A stretch of 64,000 bases of DNA from an uncultured virus (IMG/VR IMGVR_UViG_3300027896_000025) (IMGVR_UViG_3300027896_000025), one strand, 5' to 3'. Positions 3,810-61,058 are shown, counted from the stretch's first letter. The notes: generated by a model from the sequence alone, not told the origin. Translations and numbers: made by a program.

Positions 3810-4790
3810 ATGGGAAATTTTCGACTTAAAAAAATTACTGATCTCAAGAAAGTGAGTCTTGAAGACATAATCCCTGAATCTGATTACTCATTAGTAACTA
3901 ATCAAGATAAATTTCTCCAATGGGAATTCGTTAAAGATGAAGAGAAGCTTGAGCCGAGAGATGTAAAGCCGGGCATCTGGACAATTACCAAAACATTAGC
4001 AGGACTTTCTTTATCTCCAACTTCATTTACTAAAGAGAACGTGTTAGAAGAGTACTCCGCAACTCGGGATATTTCGGACAGGATTCACAAGTTCTTCAGC
4101 AACACAGAAATGTACAAAAAGTACGGAGTGTTTCCAAAACGAGGAATCTTGTTGTACGGTTCGGCAGGATTAGGAAAATCAGTAGCAATTGGAAAAGTCT
4201 GTAAAGATCTTGAAGCCAATAAAGATACCTGCATCATCGTTTGGAACACCGATAAATTTGACGCAAGCGAGATTAACTCGTTTGTTAAATCGTTTGACTA
4301 TTCGAAGCACAAAGTTAAGAAGTTCGTTCTGGTTGTGGAGGACATAGGCGGATTTGAGATGGATCAGATCAGGATGAAGTCTGACAGTAGTTTACTAGCT
4401 CTCCTTGACAACGTTGAACAGACGTTCAAGATTCCAACCGTTGTGATAGCTACTACGAACTTCATTACAAACTTCCTCGAGAACTTAACAAATCGACCTG
4501 GAAGATTTGACGACAAGATCGAGATTAAGCCGCCATCTCCAACGGCGAGAGCTAAGTTTCTGGAATTCTTTAGTAACTCAGAAGCGACCACCGAAGACTT
4601 GGATGAGATTAAATCAAAAGAATACAATAAATTCAGCATAGCGCACGTCAAGGAAGCGTTTATCCGCTCTAGGATCTACGGAATCAGTCTAGTTGATAGC
4701 ATACGTCAGATTGACTCAGAGATTAGGCTTTACGAGAAGGCTTTCCAGGATAAGATCAAACGTATGGGACTTAGTGGATTGGATGACTAA
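3810..4790 (+). CDS. AAA+ ATPase
   Basis: Walker A GSAGLGKS, Walker B VVEDI, sensor-1 ATTN, second region of homology NRPGRFD. Confidence 0.9.
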   Translation: MGNFRLKKITDLKKVSLEDIIPESDYSLVTNQDKFLQWEFVKDEEKLEPRDVKPGIWTITKTLAGLSLSPTSFTKENVLEEYSATRDISDRIHKFFSNTEMYKKYGVFPKRGILLYGSAGLGKSVAIGKVCKDLEANKDTCIIVWNTDKFDASEINSFVKSFDYSKHKVKKFVLVVEDIGGFEMDQIRMKSDSSLLALLDNVEQTFKIPTVVIATTNFITNFLENLTNRPGRFDDKIEIKPPSPTARAKFLEFFSNSEATTEDLDEIKSKEYNKFSIAHVKEAFIRSRIYGISLVDSIRQIDSEIRLYEKAFQDKIKRMGLSGLDD

Positions 4791-5017
4791 TGGCTGAGAC
4801 GTTTAACATTTCAATCTACAAAATCTCTAAAGCGATGATGAAAGACATCCCAAAACTACTTAATTTACTTGACAAAACACATGAAAACATGTTAGAATTT
4901 AGACAGTACAGTGAGATAAGAAAGCTCATCTCAAAGGTACAGGAGACAAAACAGGAGATGGAACAAGTGCTACTGAACGCCAAGAAAGTCCGAGACATTA
5001 AAGGAAGAATCGAATGA
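4790..5017 (+). CDS. Hypothetical protein
   Basis: Coupled ORF (TAATG start, ATGA end). Confidence 0.65.
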   Translation: MAETFNISIYKISKAMMKDIPKLLNLLDKTHENMLEFRQYSEIRKLISKVQETKQEMEQVLLNAKKVRDIKGRIE

Positions 5018-5805
5018 AGAATAAAAATGGACCGAGAATACTTGTCCTTGATATTGAAACGTCTCCGATTATTTCGTATACCTGGGGGTTGTTCGATCAA
5101 AATATCGCTTTGAATCAAGTTGTACAGGATTCTTACGTTATTGCGTGGGCAGCAAAATGGTTAGGCGATCCTGATTCAAAGATCGTGTACATGGATCAGC
5201 GTAACTCAAAAGATTTCTCAAATGATAAGAAGTTCCTAACTCCAATCTGGGAACTGCTAAACGAAGCCGATGTTCTGTTAACGCAGAACGGTGTTCGTTT
5301 CGATGAGAAGAAACTCAACGCTCGATTTGTTCAACAGGGAATGAAGCCGCCAGCTCCATACAAATCGATTGATACTCTGAAGATCGTGAAGAAGAAGTTC
5401 TCATTCCTTAGTAACAAACTTGAACACATGACTAAGATTCTTTGTAAAAAGCATCAGAAAACTAAGTCAAAGAAGTACCCCGGATTTGAACTTTGGAAAG
5501 AATGTCTCGCTGGAAATAAAGACGCTTGGAATGAGATGAAGGCTTACAACATTAAAGATGTGTTGTCGTTAGAAGATCTGTATCTCCAACTCCAAGCATG
5601 GGACCACACAATCGACTTCAATCTCTTCACTGACGACCCAGAGATTCGTTGCAACTGTGGTGGAACTCATTTTGAGAAACGAGGATTCAACGTTTCAGCT
5701 GCTGGAAGATTCCAACGGTACCAGTGTTTAGACTGTGGTAAATGGACTAGTAGTAAAAAGAACTTGTTGCCAAAAGAAAAGCGTGCATCTCTCCGAAAGG
5801 CGTGA
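5014..5805 (+). CDS. DnaQ/RNase H-like 3'-5' exonuclease with C-terminal Zn ribbon
   Basis: LDIETS, QNGVRFD, YNIKDV (DEDDy); CNCG...CLDCG. Confidence 0.85.
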   Translation: MKNKNGPRILVLDIETSPIISYTWGLFDQNIALNQVVQDSYVIAWAAKWLGDPDSKIVYMDQRNSKDFSNDKKFLTPIWELLNEADVLLTQNGVRFDEKKLNARFVQQGMKPPAPYKSIDTLKIVKKKFSFLSNKLEHMTKILCKKHQKTKSKKYPGFELWKECLAGNKDAWNEMKAYNIKDVLSLEDLYLQLQAWDHTIDFNLFTDDPEIRCNCGGTHFEKRGFNVSAAGRFQRYQCLDCGKWTSSKKNLLPKEKRASLRKA

Positions 5806-11862: not shown

Positions 11863-11905
11863 TCGCCTCTAGGATCGATTTTGTTGCAACTTCTGTGCCT
11901 AGATA

Positions 11906-43156: not shown

Positions 43157-43441
43157 TTAAAATCCACCTAATCTTTTTCGGAGTTTTGGAAATCGTGAAG
43201 GACCCGGGAGAGTCGGTCCTGTTAATACTGAGGACGCAGGAGCAAGTTTTGGTAATTGTGGCATATGAGTTGCTTGATTTTGACCAGGCATTGGTTTGTA
43301 ACCTGCCATCTTTATACTTGGCTCACTAGGAAAAGGCTGATTCATATGCATTGTTTCAGTATGAGCTGAAGATTTATCAAGACCGCGTTGCTTGTCTCTC
43401 TCATCTAACATTTTAGCTAACTGTTGTTTTGAAAGTGCCAT
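43157..43441 (-). CDS. Small disordered late protein
   Basis: Ends SRFPKLRKRLGGF. Confidence 0.65.
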   Translation of the reverse strand: MALSKQQLAKMLDERDKQRGLDKSSAHTETMHMNQPFPSEPSIKMAGYKPMPGQNQATHMPQLPKLAPASSVLTGPTLPGPSRFPKLRKRLGGF

Positions 43442-53555: not shown

Positions 53556-53584
53556 TTGACAACTTGAGAAAACTATGAGATGAT
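53556..53584 (+). promoter_or_regulatory. sigma70-type promoter
   Basis: TTGACA-17-GATGAT; same ATGAGATGATTAC context as the promoter at 38853-38881. Confidence 0.6.
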
Positions 53585-58763: not shown

Positions 58764-58939
58764 AACGTTTGCAACCGATTGAGTTAAATCTTACCGGAAT
58801 ACTAGTACAACAGTACTACGATACCATAGAGTATCCCCAACGTGTAAACTGGGGAGACAAACTCGGTCATTTTTCTGATAATAGATATAATCTTATGACG
58901 TTATTACGACTTCAACTTAGACAGACTGAGGAGGTATAA
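58760..58939 (+). CDS. Small EE[LIV]-terminus protein, paralog of 58581-58763 (59 aa; not in ORF track)
   Basis: YPQRVNWGDK...LQLRQTEEV. Confidence 0.62.
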   Translation: MKRLQPIELNLTGILVQQYYDTIEYPQRVNWGDKLGHFSDNRYNLMTLLRLQLRQTEEV

Positions 58940-59033
58940 GAACAAGAAGTAATACACAACTTTAAAAATACGTTTGGCGGGTGAGAGGGGTATAGCCCAA
59001 TTTCACCGCAGAGATACACCCCCTACCCCCCCC

Positions 59034-59318
59034 TTGCACGTTCCATGCCATGATTGTTAAGGACAGTTAACAGTTGCATTGGCATGATCATTGTCTATGC
59101 CACAATTGTTAAGACCGATGTCGGCACGGATCTTGCTACGGATCTTGCTATTGCAACCCAAAGCCCAAACCCGATTGGCATGATAGTTGCATGGACAACG
59201 GTGCCCAAAAACGGTGCCCAAAATTGTCGCATAACTTTTAGACACTGTCGAATCCTTAGACACACCTGAATCGAACGGACACCGATTCATTAGTCTTTAA
59301 GTCGGCATGATCGATGCA
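59034..59318. promoter_or_regulatory. Cluster of sigma54 (-24/-12) promoter motifs
   Basis: GG-N10-GC sites at 59034-59050(-), 59122-59137(+), 59176-59191(+) and 59303-59318(+), plus near-misses at 59080-59095(+) and 59088-59102(-). Confidence 0.7.
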
Positions 59319-59330
59319 CTAACTATACTC

Positions 59331-59423
59331 ATGCTGTTCTTAATTCTAATAATAGTCGGACTAATAACGCACCCAATACTAACGATCGCTCTATTAATTG
59401 TCGCGTTAATGTTCGGCGTCTAG
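59331..59423 (+). CDS. 30-aa hydrophobic micro-protein
   Basis: MLFLILIIVGLITHPILTIALLIVALMFGV; ATG 14 nt after the -12 C of a sigma54 motif. Confidence 0.5.
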   Translation: MLFLILIIVGLITHPILTIALLIVALMFGV

Positions 59424-59701: not shown

Positions 59702-60218
59702 ATACTTGATTGTGAGGATGTTATGAGACAATACTATAGGTTTTTAATTAATTGGCTGGATGTTCACGGTCGACGTTCTAATATGAGTCGGCATGTGTCG
59801 CTGAAACGTCTGTTAACGATCGGAGTCTAATAGTTAAGAAATCTTAACAATCGCACTAACAGTTTCAAGGAGTCGTTATGTATAATACAATCAATTCAGA
59901 CTATTGGTATGATCAAGTCGGTGAACAGTATATAGTGTATTGCTGTCTTTACCCTATAGCAACGGTCGATACTGAACAGCAAGCGTTGAACATTGTCAGA
60001 ACCAAGTATTTGACTGAAGATTTTGAGGAATAATATATAACGTGTCTTAAGGTCAGCATTCTACGTTCTACCCGCCTTACCTTACCATTTTGTCCCAATG
60101 CCTTGACTTGACTCCTCAATCGGTTATTAATACCCGTGATTCAGGTCTACAGGTCGAGTTTACGGTCAACTTCTAATAGTCGAGCTATTAGAGCGTTATA
60201 CGTTCGGTTTACAGTCGA

Positions 60219-60355
60219 GTATCGGTGTATAATTTAATACCGATTTACTGTATTCTACGGTATTCCTTTTTTTGTTTCTTGATTTAGTACTTGTATTCTT
60301 TATTTGTTAACATCCTAAATTTTAGTACCGATTCTGTGTAAATTTTAATACCGAT
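60219..60355. repeat. Iteron-like repeats (AATTT(T)ARTACCGAT x3) around a T-rich tract; candidate origin or operator
   Basis: Copies at 60231-60244, 60317-60332 and 60340-60355; inverted half-site ATCGGT at 60221. Confidence 0.5.
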
Positions 60356-60393
60356 CGTGTGTGCAACGGTACTGTTATTTACACTGATTTTAA

Positions 60394-60440: not shown

Positions 60441-60800
60441 ATGCTGAATAAATCTAAAATGAGTCAAATCAATACTGGATACTTTAAAACCCCTAATGCG
60501 GTTTTTAGTCTTGATTTACCTTTGGTATGTATTGGAATGTATTGTTATTTTTTATCATGTGGCGAAGACTTCAATCCAAGTATTCCTATTATATGCAAGG
60601 TCTTAGGTATTAATAAAAATACTTGTTACAAGTACTTGAACATCTTAATTCAGTGTAACTTGATACGTGTTGTATCATCGGGACACCGTAAACTTGACGG
60701 TAAACCCAGTGTATCGGCGGTTTACTCTTTAGTCGGTCCTAAGTTATGGACTAAACACATTAAGACAAAAAACGTCGGCGTGTCAGATAAGACACCTTGA
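60441..60800 (+). CDS. Winged-helix DNA-binding protein (replication-initiator N-domain-like)
   Basis: YFKTPNAVF...GMYCYFLS...PSIPIICKVLGINKNTCYKYLNILIQCNLI. Confidence 0.72.
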   Translation: MLNKSKMSQINTGYFKTPNAVFSLDLPLVCIGMYCYFLSCGEDFNPSIPIICKVLGINKNTCYKYLNILIQCNLIRVVSSGHRKLDGKPSVSAVYSLVGPKLWTKHIKTKNVGVSDKTP

Positions 60801-60934
60801 TTTTATTGGGGATAAGTACCGTTTAGGTTCTTTACACATGATCAATCCTTAGACACTGTAACTCATTCGAATTATTATAACTTTTAAAACCTTTTAAAAC
60901 AGACTATAATTATTGAATTTATTAGTCTTTTACT

Positions 60935-60950
60935 TGGCATTAGCGTTGCA
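60935..60950 (+). promoter_or_regulatory. sigma54 (-24/-12) promoter motif
   Basis: TGGCATTAGCGTTGCA; shares upstream elements and spacing with the 59303 site. Confidence 0.72.
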
Positions 60951-60962
60951 TTGAATAGTAGT

Positions 60963-61058
60963 ATGAAGGTTGTTACAAAGGTTATCAAGGTAACTAGAAT
61001 TAGTCTTAAAGAGTTTAGACGGTTACTTGATTTAGGTTACACAATCGTTTTTAAATGA
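60963..61058 (+). CDS. 31-aa micro-protein
   Basis: MKVVTKVIKVTRISLKEFRRLLDLGYTIVFK; ATG 14 nt after the -12 C; no SD. Confidence 0.5.
   Translation: MKVVTKVIKVTRISLKEFRRLLDLGYTIVFK

Follow-up and report, generated by a model that had tools for sequence, protein, structure and literature searches.

The occurrence of several promoter-like elements of the enhancer-dependent type in one short non-coding gap of a phage genome raises the question of which protein reads them and what such a cluster is for. The gap lies at 59.0-59.3 kb of a stretch of 64,000 nucleotides, here called the window, from an uncultured virus (IMG/VR IMGVR_UViG_3300027896_000025). In a preliminary description of the window, the GG-N10-GC sites of the gap were read as an array of -24/-12 elements of sigma-54 (RpoN) standing at the start of the early region. 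Textbook phage transcription relies on host sigma-70, phage sigma factors, or phage polymerases. The sigma-54 form of polymerase is enhancer-dependent and ATP-gated, and it is brought into play by nitrogen, membrane, and other stresses. Cells contain little sigma-54, whose closed complexes need an activator to open.

The window and the anatomy of the gap

The window has a G+C content of about 39% and is part of an uncultured phage. The single public run containing the stretch is a freshwater metagenome, which may be its source. No DNA match to the window was found in the phage collection, and the closest named terminase is that of a Silvanigrella phage (31% identity), whose partial genome is without the array. 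Searches of the window gave 0 Rfam matches and, with ARAGORN, 0 tRNA. The window starts inside a family-B DNA polymerase gene. Its + strand carries the replication module as far as 11.6 kb, the - strand genes of 11.9-53.4 kb are those for terminase, portal, capsid, tail, and lysis, and a run of small ORFs on the + strand extends from 53.6 kb to the window end, with a sigma-70-like promoter (53556-53584) ahead of it. Shine-Dalgarno sites belong to 44 of the 75 window ORFs versus 4 of 75 in the control, and TTGACA/TATAAT-like promoters are present. These signals suggest a host with conventional initiation and transcription, and given them we take a Bacteroidota host to be unlikely.

This layout corrects the location first proposed for the array. 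The + block begins at about 53.6 kb behind the sigma-70-like promoter, and the array lies 5.5 kb into it; what the array heads is thus a second small-gene block and not the early region. Of the sigma-54 array as first interpreted, site type and spacing stand, whereas the early-region position does not. The particulars of the gap were borne out: the four exact sites were all found at the same positions, as were the overlapping near-miss pair, both tandem duplications (recovered by TRF), and CTTAACAAT ahead of both leftward sites, and within the cluster only the last site has an ORF behind it.

From left to right, the upstream block ends in an ORF with its stop at 58939, and no intrinsic terminator is predicted at the block end. 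A non-coding spacer (58940..59018, read on the - strand) leads from this stop to the C/G run and is partly conserved with relatives (GGGGTGT..TGC.G.G..TTGGG.TAT ... TTTTTA). The run itself, G8-TA-G5 on the - strand and a C-run on the + strand (59019..59034), lies directly downstream of site 1, TGGCATGGAACGTGCA (59035-59050, - strand, 17.1 bits), which points left into it and is the array member most often kept in relatives. A 20-nt direct repeat of the form TC.ATGCCA..ATTGTTAAG (repeat family D3, + strand, feature row 59053..59113) is present in 2 copies at 59042-59061 and 59094-59113, and these copies supply the CTTAACAAT just upstream of both leftward sites. The two near-misses overlap in opposite orientations within 59080..59102: TGGCATGATCATTGTC on the + strand (59080-59095, 13.3 bits, GT for GC) and TGGCATAGACAATGAT on the - strand (59087-59102).

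Site 2, CGGCACGGATCTTGCT (59122-59137, + strand, 12.2 bits), has its -12 half repeated by a 12-nt tandem duplication (59126-59150, + strand; TRF period 12, 2.1 copies), and a nearly identical core, GGCACGGATCTTGCA, occurs in the relatives L010 and L146. Site 3, TGGCATGATAGTTGCA (59176-59191, + strand, row 59176..59193), shows 0 mismatches to TGGCAYG-N4-TTGCW and has the top matrix score of the window, 21.2 of 24.6 bits. It is followed by a 13-nt tandem duplication of AACGGTGCCCAAA (59197..59223, + strand; TRF period 13, 2.1 copies) and by AACTTTTAGACA-N11-CTTAGACAC (59232..59263, + strand, repeat family D8), which contains TTAGACA twice, 18 nt apart, and lies 48 nt before the GG of site 4. These repeats are candidate sites for an activator or another regulator. 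The same TTAGACA element was read by eye in L013 at a distance of about 50 nt. Across the terminase family, no clear enrichment was found for TTAGACA and CTTAACA (2.8x and 1.8x versus 1.2x and 2.3x for control words); they are kept between the window and a few lineages.

Site 4, CGGCATGATCGATGCA (59303-59318, + strand, 12.0 bits), belongs to a promoter module formed by ATTAGTCTTTAAGTC and the site itself, GGCATGATCGATGCA (59290..59318, + strand), which recurs at 60922-60950. Behind it lies a 30-codon hydrophobic ORF (59331..59423, + strand) whose ATG stands 13 nt after the -12 C, so that a transcript from this site would be leaderless or nearly so; no family match was found for this ORF, searched as 59307-59423. 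The second module (60848..60950, + strand) consists of CCTTAGACACTGT at 60848, an AT-rich stretch, ATTAGTCTTTTACTT, and site 5, GGCATTAGCGTTGCA (60935-60950, + strand, 14.2 bits), and site 5 heads the next gene-free gap. Sites 4 and 5 share a longer module made of ATTAGTCTTT, 5 nt, and then GGCAT, with a CCTTAGACAC element further upstream of site 5. A 31-codon ORF (60963..61058, + strand) again has its ATG 13 nt after the -12 C, the distance being identical in both window modules. The C-terminal half of this ORF resembles the first ORF behind the array of the relative G001 (33% identity over 27 residues, pairwise E 7e-5).

Between the two modules, 1.1 kb downstream of the array, lies an HTH_36/DnaD-like gene (60441-60800, a weak match). 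Just upstream of this gene is a 23-nt tandem repeat (60316-60362, 2 copies, 87% identity).

The assembly graph of the source run forks inside the array, between 59222 and 59318. A minor variant (depth 5.7 versus 31) joins at 59222 and carries other upstream sequence with another ..GGAAGTTGCA site, so that strains differ in their arrays.

The strength of the sites was assessed with a matrix of hand-tallied counts from 29 intergenic Salmonella sigma-54 sites with experimental evidence of binding (PMC3844500). In keeping with the sigma-54 reading first put forward, the matrix scores of the window cluster above the shuffled background. The bare GG-N10-GC pattern is unremarkable, with 234 matches in the window (3.66 per kb), 6 of them in the gap. 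The stricter GGCAY-N6-TGCW occurs 8 times, including 4 matches in 59035-59318, whereas 100 shuffles gave 0.93 +/- 0.97 and never more than 4. With at most 2 mismatches, TGGCAYG-N4-TTGCW is found 26 times versus 12.2 +/- 3.1, a number that none of 100 shuffles reaches. Matches of at least 12 bits to the Salmonella matrix number 11 in the window versus 2.8 in shuffles (largest 7), and 5 of the 11 lie within the 288-nt stretch 59033-59320. At 16 bits or more, 3 matches in the window compare with a shuffle maximum of 3, and the best shuffle site scored 22.2 bits versus 21.2 for the site at 59176, such strength appearing once in 100 shuffles. A single strong site is not beyond chance, and it is clustering, together with conservation in relatives, that carries the case. 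For two of the four sites the score is no higher than about 12 bits because a C precedes the GG, where all the tallied Salmonella sites have T. The core match also bears a look-elsewhere cost because the region was first picked for its resemblance to sigma-54 sites.

Similar elements are found elsewhere in the window. A strong sigma-54-type site, TGGCATATGAGTTGCTTG (43259-43276, + strand, 17.1 bits), runs antisense to the - strand structural block and falls in the frame 43157-43441. Another element, GGCACAGAAGTTGCA (11885-11900, - strand), is located where the + replication block and the - structural block converge, and it points back into the + block.

The array in relatives and in unrelated phages

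The terminase of the window has many relatives, carried on contigs of 80-90 kb. Through an alignment of the terminases of 23 relatives, 79 metagenome, 11 genome-bin, and 79 viral-contig loci were collected; the phosphoesterase, used as a search query, returned only non-syntenic loci. The MAG and bin labels of the relatives are mixed. An ORF-based intergenic classing was left out of the results, being confounded by spurious ORFs across the arrays. The spacing of the half-sites, which the preliminary description had proposed as a test, is conserved in related phage contigs: over about 2 Mb of related loci, the strict motif with N6 gave 157 matches versus 22-59 for the other spacings from N2 to N10. 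The strict motif reaches a density of 0.13-0.37 per kb in the interval 4-10 kb upstream of the terminase gene, compared with 0-0.07 per kb elsewhere, and phages whose terminases are 40-53% identical have the same arrays at this distance from the gene. Among loci with at least 7 kb of upstream sequence, a site is present in 29 of 60 and two or more sites within 600 nt in 19 of 60, counts that take in the duplicate records L021/L101 and L143/L144. A genome-wide scan of 15 near-complete relatives revealed a cluster in 8 of them, clear in 7 and marginal in 1, with 57 motif matches versus 12 for the reversed pattern. Roughly half of the relatives are without the array. The motif marks a single special locus in a genome rather than promoters in general.

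At the positions left free by the search pattern, the 77 family sites have Y at -2 in 63/77, T at -1 in 61/77, G in 42 and A in 27 of 77 at +5, R at +6 in 54/77, and T at +10 in 58/77; they thereby follow the extended consensus YTGGCACGR-N3-TTGCW. The sigma-54 consensus of Barrios et al. 1999, cited in PMC3844500, is said to match these preferences. In the 29 bound Salmonella sites, as tallied by hand from the available part of PMC3844500, the same positions read T in 29/29, G in 19 and A in 10 of 29, and T in 19/29.

The arrangement of neighbouring sites is also constrained. Convergent pairs are separated by 2 nt in 9/20 cases and by 2-6 nt in 16/20, while divergent pairs have a gap of 8-11 nt in 11/23. 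Units arranged in tandem follow one another every 40-42 nt or so in G013, in L034, and in the unrelated L214, which has six of them. The spacers of paired sites are not complementary, which argues for selection on the motif and not on hairpins. A sigma-54 closed complex covers about -34 to -5. Judged by this footprint, neighbouring sites could not be filled together, and an array would hold about one holoenzyme per 41 nt, in either orientation.

In the terminase family, a further trait accompanies the leftward site. The terminase-side site runs straight into the G-run (TTGCA-GGGGGG) in the window, in L050, L053, L105, L146, L148, and in others, and the G-run spans the region that must melt at this site. 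Among 207 G-runs of the relatives, 18 have a sigma-54-like site ending at most 60 nt upstream on the same strand, and nearly all of the 18 lie in the orientation of the terminase, 3-10 kb upstream of its gene. A G-run right after the site is a trait of the terminase family and is present at only 2 of 80 array loci in viral contigs at large. Several relatives (L148/G001, L034, L149) have two gene arms here, one leading left beyond the G-run and one leading right from the opposite side, so that the array there is a divergent control region. The window differs, as its left-hand genes (53.6-58.9 kb) point towards the array.

Two further readings of the sites were considered and rejected. A small RNA starting from the leftward site was dismissed on three results: the 77-nt stretch folds no more stably than shuffled sequence (z -0.23), folding 4 lineages together yields -3.2 kcal/mol with little covariation, and a hairpin with a T-run is inconsistent over 19 lineages. 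A sigma-70 reading, with TTGGCA as the -35 element, leaves a poor or wrongly spaced -10 and does not explain the fixed TGCA.

In one subgroup of relatives, the motif CTATAGAAAC is found between the G-run and the first leftward gene (L149 at about 380-700, L146, L010, L141, L143), with as many as five copies in L149. It may serve as a further promoter or operator word specific to this lineage.

The pairing of sites is not confined to this family. Face-to-face pairs, that is, two sites 2 nt apart, were found in at least 126 stretches of viral contigs, versus about 4-12 expected by chance on a rough composition estimate. Among the matches listed, the contigs with such pairs span 4-223 kb, and 176 half-sites from face-to-face loci give the same logo as the family sites. 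A terminase profile search of 9 face-to-face records, again among the matches listed, left 7 without a match and gave 2 faint ones (21-34 bits). The recurrence of the motif across unrelated phages argues for a universal host factor, which would explain it more easily than a private phage DNA-binding protein.

The most regular array observed belongs to an unrelated phage. It is carried by L214, a 61-kb viral contig, at 96-332, and is composed of six identical 41-nt tandem units, each of them a face-to-face pair.

Function of the array and competing explanations

Some sites are placed as promoters would be. At sites of G008, G011, G012, L088 (twice), and G002, the -12 element is followed by an AT-rich stretch and, 26-33 nt beyond the C, by a ribosome-binding site and ATG. 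In the window, the sites at 59303 and 60935 face a gene and the other three do not. A ribosome-binding site with an ATG-started ORF lies within 12-70 nt of 15 of the 151 distinct sites, versus a mean of 10.4 and a maximum of 16 in the positional control. Since this proximity to gene starts is no better than the control, most array members are probably not gene promoters.

As regards the activator, no enhancer-binding protein (PF00158) above cut-off was found in 10 viral records, comprising 5 relatives and 5 unrelated array carriers, and the single weak PF00158 match is a dNMP kinase. Neither a sigma-54 gene nor a sigma-70-family gene was found in five complete relatives. The AAA protein of the window (3810-4790) matches PF00004 and not PF00158, is without the GAFTGA loop, and is a classic-clade ATPase in the replication module.

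Taken together, the gap is probably, if by a modest measure, a battery of host sigma-54-dependent promoters and a control hub at the head of the second small-gene block. On sequence grounds, the assignment of the sites to sigma-54 is well supported; we infer the binding of sigma-54, a start about 12 nt after the GC, and the identity of the activator. In the proposed mechanism, sites for the host sigma-54 (RpoN) holoenzyme in the 59.0-59.3 kb gap would act as a hub between two small-gene blocks. The holoenzyme would dock on the -24/-12 elements as a closed complex, and an ATP-driven enhancer-binding protein, perhaps bound at the TTAGACA repeats or acting from solution, would open the promoters. 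This activator, for which the phage has no visible gene, would be a host protein. The sites at 59303-59318 and 60935-60950 would start nearly leaderless transcripts into the block running towards the replication genes. The leftward site (59035-59050) would start in the G-run, as in many relatives, and the interior sites, present in both orientations, would raise holoenzyme occupancy and could not all fire.

The same sites could serve as a trap, a roadblock, or an insulator, with the sigma-54 holoenzyme or free sigma-54 held in non-firing closed complexes. Multiplying phage DNA would then titrate the scarce sigma-54 and silence sigma-54-dependent membrane-stress and RNA-repair responses, while bound complexes would block read-through between the blocks. 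Paired sites would catch the holoenzyme in either orientation, the complex at the G-run site would be locked, and the strategy would have been reached independently by several unrelated phage families. Such a role would account for the dense two-way packing with its preferred gaps of 2 nt and about 9 nt and its tandem units of about 40-42 nt, not all of which can be promoters, and for the confinement to one locus per genome. It would also fit the lack of a phage activator in the searched records, the G-run where the conserved leftward site would have to melt, and the upstream block that ends without a predicted intrinsic terminator. However, some sites are placed exactly as promoters, ahead of a ribosome-binding site and ATG, and the 13-nt distance to the ATG is fixed in both window modules. 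Nor would the sites of a pure sponge have to keep a set place with respect to the terminase gene or the G-run, and the array of the window is loose, having 4 sites mostly in the same direction. A trap is judged unlikely, though not negligibly so.

In relatives, contig ends cluster in or beside the array or G-run (L096, L148, L034, L149, L170), and a break 3.5-13.5 kb upstream of the terminase gene is seen in about half of the long contigs. These breaks can be explained equally by G homopolymers and internal repeats. The ends of G013 overlap by 127 nt and those of G002 by 65 nt, as in circular assemblies; an overlap between start and end of G001 was seen by eye, but the exact-match test did not recover it. 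The assemblies of the window, G001, and G013 continue through the array site. Logan contigs of the source run cross the C-run with no depth doubling on either side, although contigs of this kind do not make molecule ends visible. As a separate observation, three contigs (L069, L135, L170) start exactly at the G-run, which could be a true end or an assembly break at the G homopolymer.

In this setting, a different binding protein could be considered, such as a replication initiator, the small terminase subunit, or a winged-helix regulator acting on the direct repeat TKGCA-N6-TKGCA, which would make the locus an origin or a packaging or terminal site whose likeness to sigma-54 promoters is incidental. 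The single locus per genome with iteron-like repeats and local duplications would suit this explanation, as would the HTH_36/DnaD-like gene (a weak match) 1.1 kb downstream, the many contigs of relatives that end in or beside the array or G-run, and the breaks of about half of the long contigs upstream of the terminase. However, the same motif is found in phages of other families, sizes, and samples, all its free positions follow the sigma-54 consensus, and the non-complementary pair spacers indicate selection on the motif and not on hairpins. The breaks are explicable by G homopolymers and repeats, circular assemblies pass through the locus, and depth does not double, so that this explanation appears rather doubtful. 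The preliminary description had further suggested that the sites load polymerase on first-entering DNA, with the array at the leading genome end and sigma-54 transcription pulling the DNA in. The bias of contig ends near the array and the position at the head of a small-gene block would agree with this proposal, which is nevertheless very improbable: the assemblies of the window, G001, and G013 continue across it, the sites face in both directions, a closed complex dependent on an activator would make a poor motor, and the small + strand genes of the upstream 5.5 kb have a sigma-70-like promoter of their own. Finally, a chance resemblance amplified by local duplication might be invoked, in view of the tandem duplications inside the array and of the one shuffle that yielded a 22-bit site. 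It is hardly credible, as the array is kept in many lineages with different spacers, keeps a strict spacing, and recurs in unrelated phages.

Comparison with known systems and minor features

The A1-A3 promoters of T7 are clustered sigma-70 promoters in one orientation at a mapped genome end and are thought to pull the DNA in. The phage array resembles them as a cluster of several host-polymerase promoters at the head of a small-gene block; it differs in being sigma-54-type, of mixed orientation, and without a mapped end.

The sites are closer in form to bacterial sigma-54 promoters. Those of glnA, pspA, yeaG, and hypA, among others, as given in the available part of PMC3844500, share with them the GG and TGC 10 nt apart and the extended YTGGCAYGR-N3-TTGCW, and the window site TGGCATGATAGTTGCA differs from the core of the yeaG site reported there at 2 of 16 positions. 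Unlike bacterial sigma-54 promoters, the phage packs 4-7 sites into 150-350 nt, in both orientations and often 2 nt apart, and its array is without a visible cognate activator gene, the enhancer being uncertain. The divergent pairs hycA/hypA and zraP/hydH (PMC3844500, available part) likewise have back-to-back sites that serve two gene arms. In those pairs, however, the sites are about 115-170 bp apart with activator sites between them, whereas the phage pairs are 8-11 nt apart back-to-back and 2-6 nt apart face-to-face. A sigma-54 site before a short non-coding stretch, comparable to the leftward site with its G-run, is found at glmY and glmZ in the same portion of that source. Unlike at glmY and glmZ, no conserved RNA fold or consistent terminator was found at the leftward site.

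Sites that bind holoenzyme need not be promoters and may serve other ends, as illustrated by the intragenic and antisense sigma-54 sites of E. coli and Salmonella (available parts of PMC4591121 and PMC3844500). These are scattered singly over the chromosome as far as those parts describe them, whereas the phage has one conserved array per genome. In the literature, as far as the sources were available, no description was found of natural sigma-54 promoters, arrays, or decoys in phages. If the arrays bind sigma-54 holoenzyme, a whole family of phages of 80-90 kb, with members in freshwater, soil, and marine metagenomes, together with unrelated phages, would tie part of their programme to this factor. 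Infection would then be gated by host physiology, or a host stress regulon would be disarmed by DNA sites alone.

Other features of the window deserve mention. The frame of the family-B polymerase ends at 1146 (region 1-2558), and an HNH endonuclease ORF (1136-1891) comes directly after it. A separate exonuclease-subunit gene is located at 5014-5805, and at least 8 HNH or endonuclease VII-type ORFs are dispersed over the window. The family-B polymerase may have been split by a homing element.

A palindrome, GTTAAGAAATCTTAACAAT (59833-59851), lies upstream of the ORF at 59878. It is letter-identical in L013 (about 650-670), whose terminase is 47% identical, and stands there directly before the G-run. 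This palindrome looks like an operator for a conserved regulator.
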